Source of the DNA: an uncultured Desulfospira sp.
GTDB lineage: Bacteria > Desulfobacterota > Desulfobacteria > Desulfobacterales > Desulfobacteraceae
Direction: 5' to 3'
Assembly: GCA_963663165.1 (NCBI GenBank)
Contig: OY760175.1
Location: forward strand, 4,128,001 to 4,192,000
Length of the DNA stretch: 64,000 nucleotides
Shown: in pieces, positions 41,305 to 63,518 of the stretch
How positions within the stretch are numbered: position 1 is the first letter of the stretch
Layout: each line of letters starts with the position of its first letter
The notes under the pieces: model-generated
Told to the model about the DNA's origin: nothing
The model's input: the letters and a program-made list of their open reading frames with translations, nothing else
The model's database searches: none
Translations under genes and position numbers: made by a program

Positions 41305-41525
41305 AACGGTCATACCCTTAAAGGGCAGAAACGGACCGTCTTTGATTATCCAGCCAGGCACCGCCCACAACGAATAATGAAAGCCTTCTCAGGATGTTTT
41401 ATATGAAAGAATCTGCAAGCTGCTGTAATTCTTTCATGCTTTGTTGTGGGCCGAACCGGATTAACAATCCAATCGGCCCGGTTTCTGCCCTTTAGGGTAT
41501 GGCCGTTAGTGAGCCTTTCATATAA
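41305..41525. repeat. Two nested mini-elements (outer on minus, inner 41399-41507 on plus)
   Basis: Outer loop GGATGTT|AGTGAG (intact in the 50.46 kb copy) is split by TTATATGAAA...GGCCGTT. Confidence 0.85.
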
Positions 41526-50403: not shown

Positions 50404-50586
50404 ACTAACGGCCACGGGCCGCCTTGGTTATCCAGCCAAGAACCGCCCACAACGAATAATGAAAGTCTTATCAGGATGTTAGTGAGACTTTCATATAACG
50501 GCCACGGGCCGCCTTGGTTATCCAACCAAGAACTGCCCACAACAAATATTGAAAGCACTCAACAGGTTGCTGAGTCTTTCATATAA
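50404..50586 (-). repeat. Tandem pair of mini-elements (~88-bp period)
   Basis: TTTCATATAA at 50489-50498 and 50577-50586; internal IR ATGAAAGTCT/AGACTTTCAT. Confidence 0.9.
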
Positions 50587-50626: not shown

Positions 50627-51031
50627 TCATGGGCAAATAAGTTTTATGTTTGGGAAATACGTTCTATATTTTGCAATGTCCCTTGTGACTAAGTCAAATG
50701 AAGATACTGTAGCGTGAGCACCAATGAAGAAATCCGGAAGGGTTGAACTTTTAGTGCCCTTTTTTCTTCGATACTCAAGGAATGTCTTTCCAGCCAAAAA
50801 CAAAGCTTCGCGTGGAATTTCCAGGACTTTTACACCCACTTGTTCAACAGCGTCCTCGACTTCTTCAATACGGTTGAAACCAATTGATATTTGGGTATAC
50901 ACAATTGAATTAATAAATAATGTATTCGTCTGGCTATACTGACTTAATACGTCTTCAGACCAGTTTCCCCATTTAGGATCATTCGTAAACAGATCAAGCA
51001 ACACACACGAATCAATGAAAATTCCGTTCAT
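50627..51031 (-). CDS. vapC: PIN-domain toxin
   Basis: IDSCVLLD, LPDFFIGAHA, TRD. Confidence 0.9.
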   Translation of the reverse strand: MNGIFIDSCVLLDLFTNDPKWGNWSEDVLSQYSQTNTLFINSIVYTQISIGFNRIEEVEDAVEQVGVKVLEIPREALFLAGKTFLEYRRKKGTKSSTLPDFFIGAHATVSSFDLVTRDIAKYRTYFPNIKLICP

Positions 51032-51252
51032 TTTATTTTTCTTGTCATATTCATGATTTCGTCTGTAGACATTTTAGCTGTAGCAATCCCCCTTAACTTC
51101 GAAAATTTAGAGGTCGTTTTGTTTTTTGATACTTTGACCAGATAAAATCTTCCGTTATCTTCATGAAAATCAACGTCTGTCTCTGGAGCAATACCTAATA
51201 TTTCCCTTACATTCTTGGGGATAGTGACTTGGCCTTTTGTGGTTACACGCAT
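51028..51252 (-). CDS. AbrB/MazE-type antitoxin
   Basis: MRVTTKGQVTIPK; RBS AGGAG. Confidence 0.9.
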   Translation of the reverse strand: MRVTTKGQVTIPKNVREILGIAPETDVDFHEDNGRFYLVKVSKNKTTSKFSKLRGIATAKMSTDEIMNMTRKIK

Positions 51253-51269
51253 AATAAATCTCCTTTTAT

Positions 51270-51321: not shown

Positions 51322-52215
51322 ATCGGGTAGCCGGGGGTAGTTATCTACCCCAGACCCCCTCAGAACCGTACGTGACAGTTTCCCGTCATACGGCTCAAGC
51401 ATTTCTAAGGCTAAGCCTTGCGGGGCCGCCCGGTTGTTTGAGCAATAATGAAATTTACAGTCATTTCATAGCATGCGTCCTTGGGCATCGGCCAGGAAGT
51501 ACTGTTTTTTTTTCCTGGTCAAAGACATACGTCCTTTGAAAATGCCTTGGATGTAAATGCCGTACGCTCCTTTAACAACCTTTGCGATACGCATCTACAG
51601 TCTTTTAGCAGCATAAAGCTGCTGATGGGCGCACCAGCTAATGCCGTCATTTGCTTTCCCATCTTAAAAGATTCTCTAAACTCTCTCGCAAAGAAACACC
51701 TGCCCGGGTGTGTCTGTAGTCACACCCGCCGGACGTCAGCTTCCTTTCGGACCGGGTAATATCGGGGTTTTCTCCTCAACCCGTATCCACCTCATTACGA
51801 GATGGCCTTCGCTTTTTCCTGCATCTTACGCCCGCACCCCCATCAGTGTGCCTTGCGGTTTCACCTGCCGAATGTTCCCGGCGAAGATACGGGGTTTCCA
51901 CGTTCCACATTATTGCCGATTAATGGATGACTTAGGCCTGCCCACTGCACCGGCGGCGCAACATCTCACGCGGCAGTTCCGACACCTGCATCCTGACCAC
52001 TCACCTTTTGGTCCAAGCTTACCAGCCTCTTTAGCTTGTTCTCCCTGACGACGCTTAAGGAACATTCAATTAATTTGACCATATCATCCAAACCCTTGCC
52101 CTCACCCGGAATGAGGCTTCCAGGAGGGTATCCACCTCACGGCTTCCACCCCTTCCGCAACTGCGGAATTCGGTACTTTGTCGGTTGGGCTTCACACCGT
52201 TGCCGGATGCACCGG
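51322..52215 (-). mobile_element. ORF-less group IIB intron copy A (5' end lost)
   Basis: DV GAGCCGTATGACGGGAAACTGTCACGTACGGTTC, DVI, 3' AT; homology to the other copies stops at 52215. Confidence 0.9.
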
Positions 52216-53045
52216 CCATTGCCAGAACCATGAAACAAGTCAATGGATCGACCGGCAGCAAAATAAACTGTTTCATGGTGACTTTTACCTATCCCTGTCA
52301 GTTCAGAGATGTGGCATATCTGAATCAACGGGCAGTTTATTCTCTGATGTTTTCATGTGTATCCGGCACTTTGAAAGATTTTGGGCTCAACCCACGGCAC
52401 CTTGGTGCTCAGATCGGTATAACCATGGTCCTTCACACCAATAGCAGAAGATTGGACTTTCACCCGCATATTCACGTAATTGTTCCAGGTGGCGGTGTTG
52501 ATCCATCCAGACGGCAATGGAAAAAGAAAAAGGCAAGTATTTGTTTAACCAGAAAGCCCTGGCCAAGGTTTTCCGGGCACGTTTCCTGGATGGATTGAAC
52601 AAAAAAAATTTGCCGATCCCCAAAGGTGCTCGTCCCAAATGGGTTGTTGATTGTGAGAGGGTTGGAGCAGGTCTCTCTGCCCTGAAGTATCTGTCCAGGT
52701 ATTTATACAGGGGAGTGATCAGCGAGCGTAATATTATTGCCAACCAGAACGGTCAGGTTACCTTCAGGTATATTGACGGCAAAACCAAAAAAGTATGTAC
52801 GCGAACCCTTAACGGCGAAGATTTCCTGCGCCTGATCCTGCTTCATGTATTGCCCCGGGGATTTCGCAGGGCAAGGGATTACGGTTTTCTTCATGGGAAT
52901 GCCAAAAAAACTGCTCTTTCTGGTACAGATGATTCTCCACGTACGGATTACGGCAATAGTGCGTCGGCCAAGGCCTGTGTTTAAATGCCCCCATTGCGGG
53001 CAGCCTATGAAAATCCTGGGGATAAAACCTGCCGGTGCGGGATAG
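52216..53045 (+). pseudogene. IS91-family (Y2/HUH) transposase, 5'-truncated and frameshifted
   Basis: HCQ...W..RQ, HPHIH, YLSRYLYR, LHVLPRGFRRARDYGFL, CPHC spread over several frames. Confidence 0.88.
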
Positions 53046-53309
53046 GAAAAACAAAAGGTAGAAACCAAATCTCAATTTAACTGGAGGAGAGCAACTCTAT
53101 GAAATAATCCGGCTTTTTTTAGAAAGCCCTGAAAATGGCTATGCTACAGGTGCGCCTTATCTGCGATGTCCGGAAATCAAACTCCTTCCAGCCTCCTAAT
53201 CTCCAAAAAGATATTTTCATATATAGGGAAAGCCCGGTTCATTTTGGCCGGGCTTGTTCAACAATCGGATAAGATCGTGGTTCGTTCCTCACACGATCTA
53301 TCCTTATTC
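52216..53309 (+). mobile_element. IS91-like element remnant abutting an attC R'' box (53310-53316)
   Basis: Hairpin-rich end ...TCCTTATTC|GTTGTGT a few bases after the vapC stop. Confidence 0.65.
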
Positions 53310-53321
53310 GTTGTGTGAGTA

Positions 53322-53732
53322 TTATAGCAAGATTGTTTTGAATGCCTTTTTCCCTTTAATTCTGTAAATAGAAAAGTCACGGTCAATAGTCGCTACTTCA
53401 TTTATCCCCATTTTTTCAGCGAGTAGGACAAGACATGAATCTGCAAAATCCATTGGTAGATCTCGATACTTTTTAGTCAGTTCTTTGATCCTCTGAAAAT
53501 CTGAATTTAATACATTGACTATTTCAACGCCACCCCGACTGACCCATTCGATAAAATCTAACTGTGCATTTCGGTTAAAATCCAAAAGATGCAATGTTTC
53601 TGTAATGGATGCGATCGTGGTTATGAGTAGAGCTTGATTTGACTGGATAAATTCAACAGTCTTTTGATGGTATTTGTCTGAGGAATCAAAAAGAGCAATT
53701 AATGGCCCACTATCAATAAGAATTTTGTTCAT
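53322..53732 (-). CDS. vapC: PIN-domain toxin
   Basis: LIDSGPLIAL, MDFAD, TIDRDF. Confidence 0.9.
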   Translation of the reverse strand: MNKILIDSGPLIALFDSSDKYHQKTVEFIQSNQALLITTIASITETLHLLDFNRNAQLDFIEWVSRGGVEIVNVLNSDFQRIKELTKKYRDLPMDFADSCLVLLAEKMGINEVATIDRDFSIYRIKGKKAFKTILL

Positions 53733-53971
53733 TTTCTTTTTGCCTGGAGTTTGTTTTTAAGAAGCTCTTTCCTGTTTGAGGACAAATCATTCCGGCCACT
53801 AGCATATTTGCCGAATAAATCTTGACCAGATTCCCACGCACTTTTTGTTTCTATTTTTTTGAAATAATCTACAAGGCTTTTTCGGATAAGCTCGGACTTT
53901 GTTAAGCCGAGATTTTTTGCTGTATAGTTTAATTGCTGCTCAAGCCTTGGGTCAAGTCTTAGTGTAATCAT
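53729..53971 (-). CDS. RHH/CopG antitoxin
   Basis: MITLRLD...KSELIR; RBS GGAGG. Confidence 0.85.
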   Translation of the reverse strand: MITLRLDPRLEQQLNYTAKNLGLTKSELIRKSLVDYFKKIETKSAWESGQDLFGKYASGRNDLSSNRKELLKNKLQAKRK

Positions 53972-54035
53972 AATATCACCTCCGTAATACATATGGTAAT
54001 ACATCAAGACTAAAGAATCAACGTTCTTTTTTACA

Positions 54036-54870
54036 GTCGGGTAGGTCGGGGGGGCTTTACAGCCCCTTTCCCCCCCCTCAGAACCGTACGTGACAGTTTC
54101 CCGTCATACGGCTCAAGCATTTCTAAGGCTAAGCCTTGCGGGGGCGCCCGGTTGTTTTAGCAATAATGAAATTTACAGTTATTCCATAGCATGCTTCTTT
54201 GAGCATCCCCCAGGGAAGTACAGTTTTTTTTTCCCTGTTCAAAAAAACATACGTCCTTTGAAAATGCCTATAGATGTGCATGCCGTGTGCTTCTCTAACA
54301 ACCTTTGCGATACTCATCTACAGTCTTTTAACAGTATAAACTGCTGATGGGCGCACCAGCTATTGCCGTCATTTGCTTTCCCCTCTTCAAAGATTCTCCA
54401 GACTCTCTCGCAAAGAAACGCCTGCACGGGTGTCCCCGGCGAGGGTGCGGGGTTTCCACGTTCCACATTATTGCCGATTAATGGATGACTTAGGCCTGCC
54501 CACTGCACCGGTGGCGCAACATCTCACGCGGCAGTTCCGAAACCTGCATCCTGACCGCTCACCTTTTGGTCCAAGCTTATCAGCCTCTTTAGCTTGTTCT
54601 CCCTGACGACGCTTGAGGAACATTCAATTAATTTGACCATATCATCCAAACCCTTGCCTTCACCCGGAATGAGGCTTCCAGGAGGGTATCCGCCTCACGG
54701 CTTCCACCCCTTCCGCAGCTGTGGAATTCGGTACTTTGTCGGTTGGGCGTCACACCGTTGCCGGATGCACCGGTAACTGCATGCCACCTAGGGTGCCGGC
54801 AGGAGAATGCCGGGTTTGGTCAGGACCGACTGGCCCGCCAGACAGCCAATAATGCGACTTCGTGTCGCAC
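54036..54870 (-). mobile_element. ORF-less group IIB intron copy B (extra internal deletion near 54430)
   Basis: 5' GTGCG at 54870, DV/DVI, 3' AC at 54036. Confidence 0.9.
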
Positions 54871-55001
54871 CGAGAACGGGGAGCTGAGGGGCCAGGCTTT
54901 TGAACCCCAAAACTTCCGATAAAAAGTTAAGTTTTCCTGAACCAGAAACTCCCGATAAGGCCGCGCAGTAAGCTTGGTTCCTCTCCAGCGTTTTGTTGTG
55001 C
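54871..55001 (-). other. attC site
   Basis: GCACAAC-AAAACGCTGGAG...CTCAGCTCCCC-GTTCTCG. Confidence 0.85.
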
Positions 55002-55058
55002 AATATTTTTTCAAGCAAGCCGTCTCTCTTTCAAAATTGAAAATCAACTTATTTTTCC

Positions 55059-55087
55059 TTGCGCCATACGTCAATATGACGTATATT
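55059..55087 (+). promoter_or_regulatory. TA promoter with operator
   Basis: TTGCGC-17-TATATT; palindrome ATACGTCA-ata-TGACGTAT. Confidence 0.8.
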
Positions 55088-55093
55088 GAAATC

Positions 55094-55367
55094 ATGAATA
55101 AAGTTATTCTCCATAAACGAGTCCAAAAACAACTTAAGAAACTTCCTTCTCATATAGTTACAAACCTTGAAGTTTGGATGCAAACCGTTGAAGAAGACGG
55201 AATTTTTGAAGCTCGTAAGCTCTCTGGTTACCATGATGAGCCTTTGGGCGGCAAAAGAAAAAGGGCAGCGGTCTTTCAGGCTGTCCAAAGCATATAGAGG
55301 TTTTTACATTGAGCACAATGGCAATATAATTATAGAGGTTATTGAGGTGAACAAACATGAGTACTGA
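55094..55367 (+). pseudogene. RelE/HigB-like toxin, frameshifted in an A-run (~55254-55262)
   Basis: MNKVIL...GYHDEPLGGKRK then GQRSFRLSKAYR...EVNKHEY in another frame. Confidence 0.8.
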
Positions 55368-55653
55368 ATACGGCATTAAAGAATTAGAAAACGATTTTGG
55401 ACCTTTGACATTTGGCAAGGCTCTTGCGGCCCATAGAAAAGGCGAAGAAATGACCCAGAAGCAGTTTGCTGATTTTTTAGGTATAACATCATCCAGCCTT
55501 TGTGACCTGGAAAAAGGACGAAGAATACCGTCTGTGAAAAGGGCTGCTAAAATTGCGAAGGCCTTAGGAATGTCAGAAAAAACATGGGTTAAATTTGCCA
55601 TACAAGACATGATCCGTGAGGCTGAGCTTGAGTATACTGTGTCTGTCGCGTAA
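55357..55653 (+). CDS. HigA-like XRE antitoxin
   Basis: TQKQFADFLGI...DLEKGRR. Confidence 0.85.
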   Translation: MSTEYGIKELENDFGPLTFGKALAAHRKGEEMTQKQFADFLGITSSSLCDLEKGRRIPSVKRAAKIAKALGMSEKTWVKFAIQDMIREAELEYTVSVA

Positions 55654-55735
55654 TACATTTAATGTGTTATAGGCTTTCAATAAGGCCGACAAGTCGAACT
55701 TGTTGAAAGTTAACCATCTCCGTTTCGTTTCAAAG

Positions 55736-57668
55736 ATCGGGTAGGTCGGGGGCTTTACAGCCCCTTTCCCCCCTCAGAACCGTACGTGACAGTTTCCCGT
55801 CATACGGCTCAAGCATTTCTAAGGCTGAGCCTTGCGGGGCCGCCCGGCTGTTTTCTCTTGCCAATGCTGAAATTTACAGTTATTTCATTACATATTTTCT
55901 CGGCCGCTGTGACAGGGATCACCTTTGGTTTCACCCGTCTTGCCCAGTGGATTTTATCCATGAAGGCCTGCACATTTTTCCTGGATGGTTTAATGAGCAG
56001 TTTGCCGTCATACTTACGAATGTTTTGGCCCAGAAAATCGAATCCCCGGTCAATTCGGGTAATCAGGGTCTTTTCTTCAGACAGGGATAGATCCCGTTCC
56101 GAGAGAAATCTGATTATGGCCGGTTTGACCTTGTCTTCAAGAAGTTCCCGGGTTGCACCGGTAATAATGAAATCATCAGCATACCGGATGACGTTGATTT
56201 TGGAACTGATGTCCTTACCGTTGCGTCTGTCCCTGACAGGGGCAACAGATCCGGCAGTCCCTTCAATGCCGTCCAGAACCATGTTGGCCAGTGTGGGAGA
56301 GGCAATGCCGCTTTGCGGTGTTCCCCGGCCTGTTGGAAAGAATTTACCGTCCTCCATAAACCCGGAAGCCAGCCATTTGGTAAGGATCATCTTATCCATA
56401 GGGATATGGTCGATCATCCAGTCATGGCTGATTTCATCAAAGCAGGCTTTAATATCCGCTTCAAGTATCCAGACCGGCGAGGTTTTCTTGGCCAGTGTAT
56501 TAAAGCATTGGGATATGGCGTCCGCACATCGCCTGTATGACCTGAATCCGTATGAATTGTGGTCGGCCAGTGTTTCTGCTATCGGCTCCAATGCCAGTTT
56601 ATACAATGCCTGAACAGCCTGTCGATCATTGTGGGAATACTTAACGGACGTTTCTTGCCGTTCTTTTTGGGAATATAGATCCGCCTGAGCGGTGATGGCT
56701 GGTATCCTCTCCGTTTGAGGTTGCCTGCTGCCTGGAATTTCTTCCTGGCGGTTTTCCAGGTGACGTTGTCGACACCCGGAGTGCGTTTCCCTTTATTGGA
56801 GGTCACGCGTTTTACAGCTAACAGCTTTGCCTGGTAAGAGTGGGTCAGAAGCCACTGGAGGGCCTTGGCCCGTCCGTATCTTCCTTCTTTCACAGCCTTT
56901 GCGATACGCATTTGCAGTCTTTTAACAGCTTCATAAATGGCTTTCCAATGAATGGACTTCCAATTCCTGAAACTGCCGATGGGCGCACCAGCTGTTGCCG
57001 TCATTTGCCTTCCCATCTTCAAAGATTCTCCAGACTATCTCGCAAAGAAACACCTGCCCGGGTGTGCCTGTAGCCACACCCGCCGGACGTCAGCTCCCTT
57101 TCGGGCCGGATAATGTTGGGATGTTCTCCTCAATCCGTATCCACCTCATTACAAGATGGCCTTCGCTTTTTCCTGCATCTTACTCCCGCACCTCCATCAG
57201 TGTGCCTTACGGTTTCACCTGCCGAATACTCCCGGCGAAGATACGGGGTTTCCACGTTCCACACTATTGCCAATTAGTGGATGACTTAGGCCTGCCCTCT
57301 GTACCGGCGGCGCAACATCTCCGTGCAGGCAGTTAGGAAACCTGCAGCCTGACCGCTCACCTTTTGGTCCAAGCTTACCAGCCTCTTTAGCTTGTTCTCC
57401 CTGACGGTACTTACGGAACATTCAATTAATTTGACCATATCATCCAAACCCTTGCCCTCACCCGGATTGAGGCTTCCAGGAGGGTATCTGCCTCACAGCT
57501 TCCACCCCTTCCGCACTTGCGGAATTCGGTACGTTGTCGGTTGGGCTTCACACCGTTGCCGGATGCACCGACCACCGCATGCCACCTAGGGTACCGGCAG
57601 GAGAATGCCGGGTCTGGTCAGGACCGACTGGCCCGCCAAACAGCCAATAATGCGACCTCGTGTCGCAC
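55736..57668 (-). mobile_element. Group IIB (CL-class) intron copy C, RT with 372-nt deletion
   Basis: 5' GTGCG at 57668, 3' AT at 55736; near-identical to copy E. Confidence 0.93.
55809..57022 (-). pseudogene. ltrA: Intron RT/maturase: frameshift, loss of domain X, PQGG to PQSG
   Basis: Two ORFs (147 + 265 aa); 124 aa shorter than copy E. Confidence 0.9.
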
Positions 57669-57798
57669 CCGAACGGGGAGCTGAGGGGCCAGGCTTCTTA
57701 AACCCAAAAGCTCCGATAAAAGTTTAAATTTTCTTGAACCAGGGACTCCCGAGAAGGCCGCGCAGTAAGCCTGGTCCCGCTCCAGCGTTTTGTTGGCC
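57669..57798 (-). other. attC site
   Basis: GGCCAAC-AAAACGCTGGAG...CTCAGCTCCCC-GTTCGG. Confidence 0.88.
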
Positions 57799-57809
57799 CT
57801 TTAAAGTAT

Positions 57810-58187
57810 TCATTTGTGTTTAATGCTTTTCTTATATGTTGTAATTAACTTTGATATCATAGAATTAACATTGCAATTTTCATTATCTGCAAGATCATTT
57901 AACTTTTTAAAGTTTGAATCTGTAATGTTTTTGTCTAAAATTCTTACACTTCCATCGTTCCAACGTAGCACACCTCGACTATCAAGAATAAATCTATCAG
58001 GATATTGCTTTGCAGCCTTTTTCTTGGTTTCATTCCAAGCAGCATTTATTTCTCGAGTGGAAGATAGCTGCCCAACAAGACCTAAACGTAAAGTAACATT
58101 TTCTTTTAAATGTTCTGTTCCGTTCGGAAGTTCTGTAAGCTGTTCCAACATCATTTTCGATATTCTGCCTTTTGATAACATTGCCAT
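57810..58187 (-). CDS. Hypothetical cassette protein (~125 aa)
   Basis: ORF fills the cassette; start MAMLSK after the attC. Confidence 0.7.
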   Translation of the reverse strand: MAMLSKGRISKMMLEQLTELPNGTEHLKENVTLRLGLVGQLSSTREINAAWNETKKKAAKQYPDRFILDSRGVLRWNDGSVRILDKNITDSNFKKLNDLADNENCNVNSMISKLITTYKKSIKHK

Positions 58188-58212
58188 ATTTCCAATCCCT
58201 ATGATATTACGA

Positions 58213-58328
58213 GGCCAACGGGTAGGGGCATATTGCCGAGCAGGTTGTCGAAGCCAAGTTTTTTCGAAAACCAAGGGCTTTTGAAAAGCCGCTAGCCCCC
58301 CGGGTCGGCCTGCAGCGTTTTGTTGGGC
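58213..58328 (-). other. attC site (L' arm degenerate)
   Basis: GCCCAAC-AAAACGCTGCAG...CTACCC-GTTGGCC. Confidence 0.8.
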
Positions 58329-58333
58329 AAATT

Positions 58334-58687
58334 TTAATCAACTTCTCGTGGTTCAAGTAACAAATTAAGACCTTGCAATATTTCTTCAAAACGTTTTTTT
58401 GAAAGCGTCCCGATTTTTTCGGTTAGATCACTTTTATTGACTGTATAAATTTGCGAAATATTCACAACGCTTTTCTTCGGAATGTTTGCTTCACCTTTTT
58501 TAAGAGTTACATTTCCGGGTGCGCTGCCTAACCTTAAATTTGATGTGAGGGCACAAACAACGGAAGTGTTTATTCTACTTTGATTAAAAAGGTTATTTTG
58601 AATTACAAGATGTGGATGACGATAACCGGGTTCTGATCCTTGTGGCTCTCCAAAATCAATCCAATAGATGTCACCCTGTCTTACCAT
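58334..58687 (-). CDS. mazF: PemK/MazF toxin
   Basis: QGDIYW...GSEP...HPHLVIQNN...SVVNISQI. Confidence 0.9.
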   Translation of the reverse strand: MVRQGDIYWIDFGEPQGSEPGYRHPHLVIQNNLFNQSRINTSVVCALTSNLRLGSAPGNVTLKKGEANIPKKSVVNISQIYTVNKSDLTEKIGTLSKKRFEEILQGLNLLLEPREVD

Positions 58688-58926
58688 TGGTCTTTCACCA
58701 TTTTTTTATGTTTCGGGCGCATTTTTTGAACTAAAGAGTCTGCTTGTTGATCATCATAAATGTCGTTTAGCTGTTGAAGCAATTCAATGTTTTGATGACG
58801 CTGGATATACTCTTTGACTGCTTGTGAAAAGATATAACTTCTCGAGACATTTAAACTTTTTGCAAGAATATTTATTTTTTCAAAAATGGGCTTTTCTATA
58901 GAAATGGCTGTTTTTACATTCGGCAT
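58681..58926 (-). CDS. RHH antitoxin (ChpI-like)
   Basis: KTAISI...VSRS; overlaps mazF. Confidence 0.85.
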   Translation of the reverse strand: MPNVKTAISIEKPIFEKINILAKSLNVSRSYIFSQAVKEYIQRHQNIELLQQLNDIYDDQQADSLVQKMRPKHKKMVKDQW

Positions 58927-58951
58927 ATTGATTCCTCCATTATTTTTTTAC

Positions 58952-58980
58952 AGTATAATGTCTGGTATGAAAGACGTCAA
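58952..58980 (-). promoter_or_regulatory. TA promoter
   Basis: TTGACG-17-TATACT. Confidence 0.8.
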
Positions 58981-58990
58981 TACTTTGGTA

Positions 58991-59121
58991 GCCCACCGGG
59001 GAGCTAACCGGCCGGGCGTTGAAGCCACAAAAGCTCCGATAAAAGTTTAAAATTTCATTAACCAAGCTGCTTCAAAATGCCGCGCAGATAAGCCCGGTCG
59101 GGTTCAGCGGCTTTGTTCGCC
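58991..59121 (-). other. attC site (R' reads GGT)
   Basis: GGCGAAC-AAAGCCGCTGAAC...GTTAGCTCCCC-GGTGGGC. Confidence 0.82.
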
Positions 59122-59124
59122 TCA

Positions 59125-59460
59125 TCAGTATGCAAACAGTTCCTGTAAACAATTACAAACTTTAATTTGGGTAGTTTTTGAAATAACTCCAAACTTTTTG
59201 ACTAATCTTAATTTATCTACAGCTCTTATTTGATCCAATAATATCAAGCCTTTTTTACCTTGGAATGTACATTGAATTCTTGTGGGGAAATTGAAGCCTT
59301 TGGAGGTCATTGGGGCAACAATAGCCGTTTTTAATGAAGACATTTCGTCAGGAGAAATTACAACACAAAGCCTTTTTTTCTTTATTTCGTGACCTTGTGT
59401 CGGGTCCAATTGAACTAACCAAATGTCGAATCTGTTGATAGGCTGATTCACCATTCCCAA
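59125..59460 (-). CDS. mazF: PemK/MazF toxin
   Basis: LDPTQGHEIKK.R.CVVISP, APMTS, DQIRAVDK. Confidence 0.9.
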   Translation of the reverse strand: MGMVNQPINRFDIWLVQLDPTQGHEIKKKRLCVVISPDEMSSLKTAIVAPMTSKGFNFPTRIQCTFQGKKGLILLDQIRAVDKLRLVKKFGVISKTTQIKVCNCLQELFAY

Positions 59461-59702
59461 TCCTCATCATCAACCAGAGATGCATCCAACCATTCCTGGT
59501 CCAACTCCTCTTCGTTTTCTGCTTTAAGGTATTTTTCAAATTGTTTTTTCCACCCCTGCCTGGGTTTTCTGGATGGTTTTATTAACAGCCCTTCATCAAG
59601 CACCTTAAATTCCAGTTCTTTCTCATTAAGTTGTGCTTGTTCAATAATCGCTTTGGGAATTCTCACTCCTTGCGAATTTCCAATTCTTATTAATGTTGCC
59701 AT
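59448..59702 (-). CDS. mazE: AbrB/MazE antitoxin
   Basis: IRIGNSQGVRIPK; acidic tail DEDWEW. Confidence 0.88.
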   Translation of the reverse strand: MATLIRIGNSQGVRIPKAIIEQAQLNEKELEFKVLDEGLLIKPSRKPRQGWKKQFEKYLKAENEEELDQEWLDASLVDDEDWEW

Positions 59703-59787
59703 AAACACCTCTAATTTTGATTAATGTAATTACAACATAATCACTTAATTCTGTTTTTGTCAAATCAAAATCGTAGGTTTTTAGAAG

Positions 59788-60777
59788 ATCGGGTAGCCGG
59801 GGGTAGTTATCTACCCCAGGCCCCCTCAGAACCGTACGTGACAGTTTCCCGTCATACGGCGCAAGCATTTCTAAGGCTAAGCCTTGCGGGGCCGCCCGGT
59901 TGTTTTAGCAATAATGAAATTTACAGTTATTTCATAGCATATATCCTTGAGCATCTGCCCGGAAAGTATTTTTCTTTTTCCGGGTCAAAAGAGAACATCC
60001 TTTTGAAAGATGCCTCTGGCGTGTATGCTGTGTGCTACTTTAACAACCTTTGCGATACGCATCTACAGTCTTTTAACAGAATAAATCTGCTGATGGGCGC
60101 ACCAGCTATTGCCGTCATTTGCTTTCCCATCTTCAAAGATTCTCCAGACTCTCTCGCAAAGAAACACCTGCCCGGGTGTGCCTGTAGCCACACCCGCCGG
60201 ACGTCAGCTCCCTTTCGGGCCGGATAATGTTGGGATGTTCTCCTCAATCCGTATCCACCTCATTACAAGATGGCCTTCGCTTTTTCCTGCATCTTACTCC
60301 CGCACCTCCATCAGTGTGCCTTACGGTTTCACCTGCCGAATACTCCCGGCGAAGATACGGGGTTTCCACGTTCCACACTATTGCCAATTAGTGGATGACT
60401 TAGGCCTGCCCTCTGCACCGGCGGCGCAACATCTCACGCGGCAGTTAGGAAACCTGCAGCCTGACCGCTCACCTTTTGGTCCAAGCTTACCAGCCTCTTT
60501 AGCTTGTTCTCCCTGACGGTACTTACGGAACATTCAACTACTTTGACCATATCATCCAAACCCTTGCCCTCACCCGGATTGAGGCTTCCAGGAGGGTATC
60601 TGCCTCACGGCTTCCACCCCTTCCGCAGTTGCGGAATTCGGTACGTTGTCGGTTGGGCTTCACACCGTTGCCGGATGCACCGACCACCGCATGCCACCTA
60701 GGGTACCGGCAGGAGAATGCCGGGTTTGGTCAGGACCGACTGGCCCGCCAAACAGCCAATAATGCGACTTCGTGTCG
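59788..60777 (-). mobile_element. ORF-less group IIB intron copy D (first 3 nt absent at the junction with copy E)
   Basis: Full ribozyme homology, 3' AT at 59788, begins CGACACG. Confidence 0.9.
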
Positions 60778-63082
60778 ATCGGGTAGGTCGGGGGCTTTAC
60801 AGCCCCTTTCCCCCCTCAGAACCGTACGTGACAGTTTCCCGTCATACGGCTCAAGCATTTCTAAGGCTGAGCCTTGCGGGGCCGCCCGGCTGTTTTCTCT
60901 TGCCAATGCTGAAATTTACAGTTATTTCATTACATATTTTCTCGGCCGCTGTGACAGGGATCACCTTTGGTTTCACCCGTCTTGCCCGGAAGTATTGTTG
61001 ATGTTCCGGGTCAAAAGGATTTGCATCGCTTTTGATTTTGATGTGCCGTTGGATATGTATGCTGTGCGCTTTGATGAGTTCGGATGTTCTCGGGTTGCCG
61101 TTTTTATCTTTGACCACCGTTGAGAACCGCCCCGGTTTTGAGCCCTTTGACCAGTACGTCTTTTTCAACCATTGGATGCTTTTATTCCGGTGACGTCGTT
61201 TCACCCATTGCCACGCTTCATTCCATATGTACCCGTCAACATAGCTGAAAGTTTTTGCTGAGACAACATGTTTGTGATAGTTCGCCCAACCCCTTATTTT
61301 CATGTTAAGATCATGAATCAGAGCCTCGGCTTTCGATCCCCGGTGCTTCCTGAACGTCTCGTGGATTTTATCCATGAAGGCCTGCACATTTTTCCTGGAT
61401 GGTTTAATGAGCAGTTTGCCGTCATACTTACGAACGTTTTGGCCCAGAAAATCGAATCCCCGGTCAATTCGGGTAATCAGGGTCTTTTCTTCAGACAGGG
61501 ATAGATCCCGTTCCGAGAGAAATCTGATTATGGCCGGTTTGACCTTGTCTTCAAGAAGTTCCCGGGTTGCACCGGTAATAATGAAATCATCAGCATACCG
61601 GATGACGTTGATTTTGGAACTGATGTCCTTACCGTTGCGTCTGTCCCTGACAGGGGCAACAGATCCGGCAGTCCCTTCAATGCCGTCCAGAACCATGTTG
61701 GCCAGTGTGGGAGAGGCAATGCCGCCTTGCGGTGTTCCCCGGCCTGTTGGAAAGAATTTACCGTCCTCCATAAACCCGGAAGCCAGCCATTTGGTAAGGA
61801 TCATCTTATCCATAGGGATATGGTCGATCATCCAGTCATGGCTGATTTCATCAAAGCAGGCTTTAATATCCGCTTCAAGTATCCAGACCGGCGAGGTTTT
61901 CTTGGCCAGTGTATTAAAGCATTGGGATATGGCGTCCGCACATCGCCTGTATGACCTGAATCCGTATGAATTGTGGTCGGCCAGTGTTTCTGCTATCGGC
62001 TCCAATGCCAGTTTATACAATGCCTGAACAGCCTGTCGATCATTGTGGGAATACTTAACGGACGTTTCTTGCCGTTCTTTTTGGGAATATAGATCCGCCT
62101 GAGCGGTGATGGCTGGTATCCTCTCCGTTTGAGGTTGCCTGCTGCCTGGAATTTCTTCCTGGCGGTTTTCCAGGTGACGTTGTCGACACCCGGAGTGCGT
62201 TTCCCTTTATTGGAGGTCACGCGTTTTACAGCTAACAGCTTTGCCTGGTAAGAGTGGGTCAGAAGCCACTGGAGGGCCTTGGCCCGTCCGTATCTTCCTT
62301 CTTTCACAGCCTTTGCGATACGCATTTGCAGTCTTTTAACAGCTTCATAAATGGCTTTCCAATGAATGGACTTCCAATTCCTGAAACTGCCGATGGGCGC
62401 ACCAGCTGTTGCCGTCATTTGCCTTCCCATCTTCAAAGATTCTCCAGACTATCTCGCAAAGAAACACCTGCCCGGGTGTGCCTGTAGCCACACCCGCCGG
62501 ACGTCAGCTCCCTTTCGGGCCGGATAATGTTGGGATGTTCTCCTCAATCCGTATCCACCTCATTACAAGATGGCCTTCGCTTTTTCCTGCATCTTACTCC
62601 CGCACCTCCATCAGTGTGCCTTACGGTTTCACCTGCCGAATACTCCCGGCGAAGATACGGGGTTTCCACGTTCCACACTATTGCCAATTAGTGGATGACT
62701 TAGGCCTGCCCTCTGTACCGGCGGCGCAACATCTCCGTGCAGGCAGTTAGGAAACCTGCAGCCTGACCGCTCACCTTTTGGTCCAAGCTTACCAGCCTCT
62801 TTAGCTTGTTCTCCCTGACGGTACTTACGGAACATTCAATTAATTTGACCATATCATCCAAACCCTTGCCCTCACCCGGAATGAGGCTTCCAGGAGGGTA
62901 TCCGCCTCACGGCTTCCACCCCTTCCGCAACTGCGGAATTCGGTACTTTGTCGGTTGGGCTTCACACCGTTGCCGGATGCACCGACCACCGCATGCCACC
63001 TAGGGTACCGGCAGGAGAATGCCGGGTTTGGTCAGGACCGACTGGCCCGCCAAACAGCCAATAATGCGACCTCGTGTCGCAC
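60778..63082 (-). mobile_element. Group IIB (CL-class) intron copy E, full length (~2.3 kb)
   Basis: 5' GTGCG, DV with AGC triad, DVI, 3' AT; RT ORF in DIV. Confidence 0.95.
60851..62436 (-). pseudogene. ltrA: Intron RT/maturase without HNH endonuclease; single frameshift near 62032
   Basis: RVT_N (WKSIHW...RLQMRIAKA), TPGVD, PQGG, YADD, GWANYH, ANPFDP. Confidence 0.9.
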
Positions 63083-63209
63083 CACGACGGGGAGCTCAGC
63101 CGCCCGGAGCGAGAACCGAGAACTTCCCCAAAATTAAATTCTTTTCAAAAACCAAGGTCTTTCAAAAAGCCGATAGCTCTCCGGGTCGGCCTGCAGCGTT
63201 TTGTTGTGC
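63083..63209 (-). other. attC site
   Basis: GCACAAC-AAAACGCTGCAGGCCG...CGGCTGAGCTCCCC-GTCGTG. Confidence 0.88.
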
Positions 63210-63212
63210 GAG

Positions 63213-63518
63213 TTATATTAAAGCCTCTAAGCCTTTTCTTTCCATGATATCCAACAATTTCCTTGAGGCTCCTGTAGGTTTTTTATTCCCCTGTTCCCAC
63301 TTCTGTACAGTAGAGGTACTAATATTGAAAACGCTTGCTAACGCAGCTTGGCTTAAATTAAATCTTTTTCGGATTTCGGTTATGTTTTTGGGGGAATAGT
63401 CTTTAACTTCTGGAAGACATAATTTTTCAATATTTCTTAAAGTAATGTCATCCACAAGCCCACTTTTATTTAAGTCCCTTACGGTTTCGGTAATTGAATC
63501 TGAAATTGATTTTCTCAT
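63213..63518 (-). CDS. XRE HTH antitoxin (HigA-like)
   Basis: LSQAALA...TVQKWEQGNKKP. Confidence 0.9.
   Translation of the reverse strand: MRKSISDSITETVRDLNKSGLVDDITLRNIEKLCLPEVKDYSPKNITEIRKRFNLSQAALASVFNISTSTVQKWEQGNKKPTGASRKLLDIMERKGLEALI

Follow-up and report, generated by a model that had tools for sequence, protein, structure and literature searches.

An integron cassette array in which toxin-antitoxin cassettes abound occupies the right end of the 64,000-nt stretch of DNA analysed here (the window; uncultured Desulfospira sp., G000:C1:4128001-4192000); it holds five group II intron copies, A to E. All five were found with Rfam and all lie on the - strand. They have group II ends and domains (GUGYG at the 5′ end, AY at the 3′ end, domains V and VI (DV and DVI); RF00029, 59.8-72.1 bits), with damage to the 5′ ends of A and D. 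Coordinates without a prefix are those of the window, and further copies in the same genome (G000) carry m-numbers after their starts. An integron integrase gene (TIGR02249, 456 bits) is located at G000 4194663-4195604 on the + strand, ~2.7 kb past the window's end; hence the cassette (top) strand is -, the strand of the introns.

Three of the copies, A, B and D, are mini-introns (minis) that lack an open reading frame (ORF), and their lengths (Table 1) bear out the 0.83-0.99 kb of the original prediction. The prediction had also described one and the same patchwork in domain IV (DIV) of all three, and this is what the alignment gives. In each of them, ~35-37 nt are gone after codon ~11, followed by a strand derived from KRLQMRIAK-coding DNA in which Q has become TAG; a ~1.2 kb deletion then fuses this strand to HIQRH- and FDP..QYF-derived DNA, and ~30 nt are lost after QYFRA. 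A genome-wide count gave nine minis in G000 (903578, 1871580, 1880445, 1885151, A, B, D, 5576789 and 5565885/5547453), all with the same breakpoints, which recur in two complete and two partial copies of a second genome, from a sister species of the same genus (G001), and in one half copy, at a break, in a genome of another genus (G004), where a divergent truncated copy is also present. One-off deletion derivatives with other breakpoints are found at G000:2943957 and G001 C2:968742.

The mini remnant and its cognate intron-encoded protein (IEP) were surveyed in 61 genomes. The remnant was found in only three, G000, G001 and G004, and all three also have cognate IEP sequence (intact and 92% identical in G001, in pieces of 87-89% in G004). 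G013 and G034 have the full intron, with no mini found in either. An order-wide search of 401 genomes with the mini DIV, scoring two candidates in each, gave no full remnant beyond G000 and G004.

Only three of the nine minis in G000 are intact end to end, all outside the window, among them m5576 (5576789-5577783) and m1885 (1885151-1886142), and another three are split by insertion sequence (IS) elements. Within the window, A misses its first ~94 nt, where the remnant of an IS91-like element adjoins. In B, the whole of DIII and a portion of DII are gone (41 nt remain of ~205), and the DVI is of the full-length type, which makes B a mosaic; it is likely inactive. D has lost its first three bases (GTG), with E abutting, and the first base of its DV triad has changed from A to C in this copy alone. 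Thus, the claim that these copies keep a ribozyme close to that of the full intron stands as far as the Rfam matches (DV/DVI, D1-D4) go, although none of the three is intact and, as discussed below, their likeness to the full intron is partly due to recombination. All three are damaged and probably no longer act as donors.

The distances among the minis do not fit the proposed spread within the window's array. A, B and D are 61-88 substitutions apart from one another and have their closest kin in other arrays, so they did not spread from one another here. A differs by 11 substitutions from both m1885 and m1880, which are themselves 1 nt apart at different attC sites, and D differs by 12 from the intact mini m5576, while the subfamilies are 49-101 apart. 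No homology was found among 14 downstream and 13 upstream flanks in G000, and these unrelated flanks rule out segmental or cassette duplication within that genome. Furthermore, A's cassette is empty in G034 and G004 (97% identity), and the homologue of D's cassette in G005 (88%) is without a mini, while that in G001 (about 85-86%) has one at the same spot. B's cassette has an intron-less homologue in G004, albeit not at an attC, and the empty form of a G001 mini site is present in G000. Differing breakpoints or common flanks had been named in advance as grounds against a single lineage; neither occurred, and the central claim, that a single old deletion lineage occupies several attC sites, is upheld by the breakpoints, the unrelated flanks, the empty alleles and the presence of an intact helper intron-encoded protein in the genome. 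Taken together, these alignments indicate that precise insertions took place repeatedly, some of them recently, and over several arrays instead of inside the window's own.

Table 1. Introns, attC-like sites, entered cassettes and an adjoining element in the window
Feature	Position	Strand	Basis
Cassette entered by A: MazE-like antitoxin + PIN toxin	50627..51255	-	domain matches
Mini-intron A, ORF-less, 897 nt; DIV 51399-51699; EBS1-like CGGAAC 51976-51981	51322..52218	-	Rfam DV/DVI, D1-D4
Broken IS91-like (Y2_Tnp) transposase remnant at A's 5′ end	52185..52984	+	Pfam PF04986, two ORFs
Cassette entered by B: small ORF + PIN toxin	53322..54007	-	domain matches
Mini-intron B, ORF-less, 835 nt; DIV remnant 54117-54421	54036..54870	-	Rfam DV/DVI, D1-D4
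attC-like site; R′ box (GTT + 4 nt) immediately before B	54873..55012	-	profile built from occupied sites + junction
Intron C: CL1 IEP, frameshift + 372-nt maturase (X) deletion	55736..57668	-	sequence comparison
attC-like site before C	57670..57804	-	profile
Cassette entered by D: MazE-like antitoxin + PemK/MazF toxin	59125..59708	-	domain matches
Mini-intron D, ORF-less, 990 nt; DIV 59865-60167; EBS1-like CCTAAC 60444-60449	59788..60777	-	Rfam DV/DVI, D1-D4
Full-length intron E (2305 nt) with a frameshift in its IEP; either nested behind the third base of D or head-to-tail with D	60778..63082	-	sequence comparison
attC-like site before E and D	63084..63219	-	profile

The minis A, B and D lie in cassette orientation just after the R′ box of an attC, a few bases inside the cassette. 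GTT plus 3 or 4 nt, as in the R′ box, ends 24 of 25 family 5′ exons, the exception being E with GTC; from the automatic search for R″ partners, which often picked a wrong partner, only the GTT position was used. A family intron follows 13 of 55 attC-like matches, the profile having been made from occupied sites. In all copies of the close family that have a DI, the sequence of the DId3 loop is NNNAAC, complementary to GTTnnn as expected of exon-binding site 1 (EBS1), and its variable half pairs with the site at 50 of 69 positions versus 42.9 after shuffling (p 0.015; 23 sites with GTT at -6, related copies not being independent). A GGGAG segment resembling EBS2 is complementary to the CTCCC spacer of the local attC type. 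This double complementarity suggests that the lineage recognises top-strand attC through EBS pairing of the ordinary kind, leaving the site almost whole. Distant Desulfobacterota CL1 introns also follow GTTnnn and have NNNAAC loops (L050, L053, L095, L100, L104, L129, L137, L138, L142, L144, L146 and others), other CL1 relatives do not follow GTTnnn, and copies from Bacteroidales (L072-L077) and Acidobacteriota (L097, L098) are preceded by GTTn in a shifted register, their loops containing AACG. Strand bias relative to replication was uninformative, with copies on both template types by GC skew.

It had been expected that the remnant would be more diverged between copies than the ribozyme. Pairwise, the remnant differs at 28/211 (A-B), 38/211 (A-D) and 40/213 (B-D) positions, and DI at 12/314, 22/314 and 29/405, respectively. 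Over the 45 pairs of ten minis, mean divergence is 12.5% in the remnant versus 6.4% in DI, 7.5% in DII-III and 1.3% in DV, in line with that expectation; DVI, with 16.6%, departs from it and varies as much as the remnant does, since a DVI of the full-length type is present in B and in one G001 mini (g1_m2310). The interpretation placed on this contrast, a drifting remnant beside a selected ribozyme, does not hold in that form: the likeness of the ribozymes partly reflects exchange with full copies, and the remnant has helices that covary. Nor can the remnant be used as a neutral yardstick, as its divergence (12.5%, and 20.8% in unpaired DIVb) is below or near the divergence at four-fold sites of intact IEP genes across genera (0.24-0.31), in addition to its covariation.

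DIV is predicted to fold with z scores of -1.4 to -4.7 in nine minis. The KRLQMRIAK-coding DNA supplies the 3′ strand of a predicted DIVa arm that bears the ribosome-binding site (RBS) and AUG, and for the C-terminal pieces the predicted fold is a multi-branch DIVb. Three full-length ORFs are predicted to have these hairpins as well; the small deletions take the top of one hairpin and all of another. A pair in the basal DIVb stem is C-G in full copies and U-A in minis, and one 7-bp DIVb hairpin shows, by eye, three different two-sided changes. In an alignment of eight rows (A1), 95.2% of cells pair and 6 of 42 pairs have a two-sided change; the covariation score was matched by none of 500 shuffles, with no correction for kinship and with a structure derived from the same rows. 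L156 and L157, ORF-less attC-type introns from metagenomes, have the same DIVa strand with a different DIVb, and on DI-DIII they fall in other clades (support 100/99 and 100/100). L156 and L049 are each followed by a second intron start, head-to-tail. The predicted folds and compensatory changes thus indicate that the remnant is a pruned RNA structure under selection rather than a product of neutral decay, which makes a better case for functional minis than does the contrast between remnant and ribozyme. Two other candidates for selection were set aside. The TAG is out of frame with the AUG (copies read by eye) and also occurs in two unrelated ORF-less introns, themselves found with a pattern that required TAG; and there is no conserved remnant peptide, the frames varying between copies (by eye).

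Five family copies in G000 bear an ORF. The sole intact IEP gene of that genome (5573101-5575411) has an open frame of 522 aa (P0001) with RVT_N, RVT_1 and GIIM, and a domain search of P0001 gave no HNH or other endonuclease match. Its best match in the PDB is 6me0_C (E 2.5e-165), from the IIB1 intron complex of T. elongatus (6ME0, the Th.e.I3 structure), far above the chains of IIA (5g2x) and IIC (6ar1) introns. DI spans ~410 nt, with an EBS1 segment of 6 nt and an EBS2 segment that are each complementary to 5′-exon sequence. From the match of P0001 and the size of DI, we assign the family to CL1/IIB1 and not to IIC; judged by matches to structure chains, its IEP would be of an endonuclease-less (En-minus) CL1/IIB1 type. 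Close relatives of the IEP are found in Thermodesulfobacteriota records. An identity with the IIC-attC introns, which was considered, is ruled out by the IEP class, the ribozyme size and top-strand insertion after GTTnnn(n). A 372-nt deletion in the maturase (X) region is common to three copies at three attC sites (C, G000:C1:1886896-1888829 and 1861332-1863201), which by sequence appear to form a second non-autonomous lineage. At codon ~131 of their IEPs, C and E both lack the same single base of a short run of G, which is either a real loss or an assembly error. The ORF regions of the G000 copies are 2-11 nt apart over 1.2-1.6 kb, with up to 37 nt in the 5′ 700 nt; the RNA part is therefore more polymorphic than the gene.

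E meets D at 60775-60780, where D's GTG is missing, and E's 5′ exon (63080-63090) ends in GTG, so that excision of E by splicing would give D a GUGCG start again. The arrangement may thus be a twintron or a tandem stack with a 3-nt slip. Between 50600 and 64000 the cassettes are mostly type II toxin-antitoxin pairs (PIN, PemK/MazF, RelE, HTH), several directly preceded by introns. IS91-like elements lie beside truncated family introns at two loci (52185-53320 and G000:C1:5540210-5542904), and by eye a short attC-like palindrome is seen at ~53256-53317, beside the end of the former. Two more large, IS-interrupted arrays with the same attC type are located at G000:C1:1861000-1919000 and 5542000-5614000, with no integron integrase match near either. 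Short dispersed repeats (families D11 and D19) at 41324-41525 and 50406-50586 flank a polysaccharide gene cluster.

RNA data came from four metatranscriptomes of other organisms (X16-X19, three studies), used as contigs and possibly containing DNA. Contigs in X16-X19 cover mini-type DIV in small shares, which we do not count as support. In X16, contig depth is in the hundreds to thousands inside the intron versus 12-40 in the flanks. In addition, for L001:4289-5285 an X18 contig joins an intron 3′ end to a GTGCG start, and a loose end in X19 has a similar 3′-to-5′ join with another DVI; these joins, apparently with one extra base, would be either circles or tandem stacks of DNA.

On the whole, A, B and D represent, in damaged form, a single old ORF-less CL1/IIB1 lineage, and we consider it probable that this lineage is spliced and copied to new attC sites in trans by the RT/maturase of a sister intron that is intact. 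The precursor RNA would come from read-through transcription starting at cassette promoters, and the helper IEP would bind the retained DIVa, which keeps the RBS and AUG region. The lariat could then reverse-splice into single-stranded or unwound attC DNA, after R′, with cDNA synthesis primed at the replication fork as in other En-minus introns. For transcription, DIVa-aided splicing, reverse splicing and fork priming, we lean on excerpts of the published accounts of TeI3 (PMC2882425) and of En-minus introns (PMC4424553). Deletions would have shed coding DNA and spared the RNA helices of DIV, while the DI-DIII and DVI modules were presumably swapped with full-length copies by recombination or template switching. 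Being a few bases inside the cassette, the minis could also ride along with cassette movement by IntI.

Several observations weigh against this proposal. As noted, no more than three of the nine minis in G000 are intact. At most sites EBS1 and the intron-binding site (IBS1) match imperfectly, in 3-5 of 6 pairs. The count of two-sided pairs, taken alone, was matched by 48 of 500 shuffles, and paired columns of the remnant still vary (15.4% versus 20.8% for unpaired ones). No ligated-exon joint was present in the contigs of X16-X19 (four runs). Two units of mini plus cassette, D's and m1885's, are common to G000 and G001, with 86% and 92% flank identity. Finally, recombination is pervasive: over the shared 5′ 700 nt (71 informative sites), a PHI-like statistic was 0.315 versus 0.43, with 0 of 5000 permutations as extreme, and a mini clade is rejected on DI-DIII (approximately unbiased test, p-AU 0.0017), while on DIV the minis are one lineage. 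The placement of one row of the DI-DIII tree, g4_C6, was left unused, the row being 15% filled. We attribute the non-monophyly on DI-DIII to recombination, as the alignments suggest. Nevertheless, given this mosaicism, some minis could be full-length introns that were converted in place.

Such in-place conversion is the main rival. Full introns would home to attC, and double crossovers in the 5′ 700 nt and the 3′ 130 nt would swap their ORF for the mini DIV, so that the minis themselves need not move. Besides the strong mosaicism, DII-DIII of D is identical to that of E and C (0/205) and 17/205 from the intact copy, B and g1_m2310 have a full-type DVI, and all four combinations of frameshift and 372-nt X deletion occur among the ORF copies of G000. 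From the mosaicism and the identity of D to E and C, it follows that the ribozymes' closeness to full copies is partly exchange. However, in seven of the eight G000 minis with a 3′ end, DVI is unlike that of all five ORF copies to within ~10 nt of that end, with non-homologous flank beyond, and conversion offers no reason for compensatory change in helices specific to the minis. We regard it as unlikely to account for the minis.

A second explanation holds that the minis were mobile long ago and are now passive in cassettes moved by IntI, horizontal transfer and IS elements. This would suit an intron a few bases inside its cassette, the six damaged copies of nine in G000, and the presence of minis in the D and m1885 cassettes of G001 too; evidently, cassette traffic or inheritance contributes to the spread. 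Against it, near-identical minis are found in unrelated cassettes (m1885 and m1880; D and m5576), and A's cassette is 97% identical to empty alleles. As a full account of the minis it is quite improbable.

Thirdly, a cognate IEP may not be needed at all, the intron self-splicing and then reverse-splicing protein-free into single-stranded attC, with host repair or an unrelated RT completing the insertion. A group II ribozyme reportedly self-integrates without protein, going by the title of a preprint (10.1101/2024.08.31.610620). A further point is that attC DNA is used single-stranded (PMC7923331, in the excerpted text). Yet all minis retain DIVa, presumed to be the arm that binds the IEP, as do two independent ORF-less relatives, and minis were found only where cognate IEP sequence occurs (three of three genomes); we rate this route as very improbable. 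A last alternative, dead copies that arose by independent deletions or by segmental duplication, for which the one-off derivatives with other breakpoints might speak, is refuted by the four deletions common to all minis and by the unrelated flanks, and we give it next to no credence.

A wider picture can also be drawn, which we rate as somewhat less likely than not. The minis would be a long-lived, cross-genus RNA parasite of a parasite, with an RT gene pruned exactly to the RNA helices hidden in its coding sequence; the lineage would have outlived helper turnover, refreshed its targeting and catalytic modules by exchange, and travelled in two ways, by retrohoming to the R′ boxes of attC sites and in cassette traffic driven by IntI. 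The top-strand attC CL1 lineage would spawn ORF-less satellites repeatedly (at least three origins were seen), and integrons would hold ORF-less introns far more often than the phrase 'rare in bacteria' in the literature suggests. As the introns leave attC intact and precede cassette genes, the expression of cassettes could be altered by them, and they could be carried along when cassettes move. The minis also constitute a natural deletion map of a minimal DIV for an En-minus CL1 intron, marking which RT-coding parts double as RNA structure, and they caution that recombination confounds per-domain divergence in multi-copy introns.

A literature search found no publication on ORF-less introns on the top strand of attC, subscription journals lying outside its reach. 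Two parts of the present findings are already known from the published excerpts compared here: ORF-less, trans-mobilised CL1 introns with one common deletion (TeI3), and a CL1 intron after attC in cassette orientation, published once (UHB.I2). New here are the age of one mini lineage, which spans genera, a deletion map that respects structure and shows covariation in former coding DNA, the module exchange with the helper, and the maturase-deleted non-autonomous lineage.

Group IIC-attC introns of the S.ma.I2 type are, by the excerpts, of class C; they enter the bottom strand of R″ at TTGT/T, in the orientation opposite to the cassettes, and have no EBS2 (PMC7923331, PMC4424553). The family described here likewise consists of attC specialists without an endonuclease; it differs in being CL1/IIB, in using the top strand after R′, and in its EBS2-like match. 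UHB.I2, a IIB1/CL1 intron from a soda-lake cassette array (Sonbol and Siam 2021, PMC7923331), is closer: it too is CL1 and En-minus and lies directly after attC in cassette orientation among toxin-antitoxin cassettes. It differs as a single ORF-bearing copy, for which the authors speculated on a role of hairpins, and the excerpted text reports neither EBS-based recognition of attC nor ORF-less satellites. To this target class the present family adds a mechanism, the pairing of EBS with a conserved top-strand R′ box.

The closest parallel to the minis is TeI3 of T. elongatus, for which trans-mobilisation of ORF-less introns was tested experimentally (Mohr et al. 2010, PMC2882425). As far as the excerpts of that paper extend, both systems are CL1/IIB1 and have one ORF deletion with the same breakpoints, N- and C-terminal remnants, proliferation, covariation in the shortened DIV, EBS divergence, twintrons and a driver IEP in the same genome. 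Unlike TeI3, the system reported here, known from sequence alone, has an IEP with no endonuclease match, an attC target, a lineage over two genera and extensive module exchange with its helper. It would follow T. elongatus as the second case in bacteria in which non-autonomous group II introns are well resolved.

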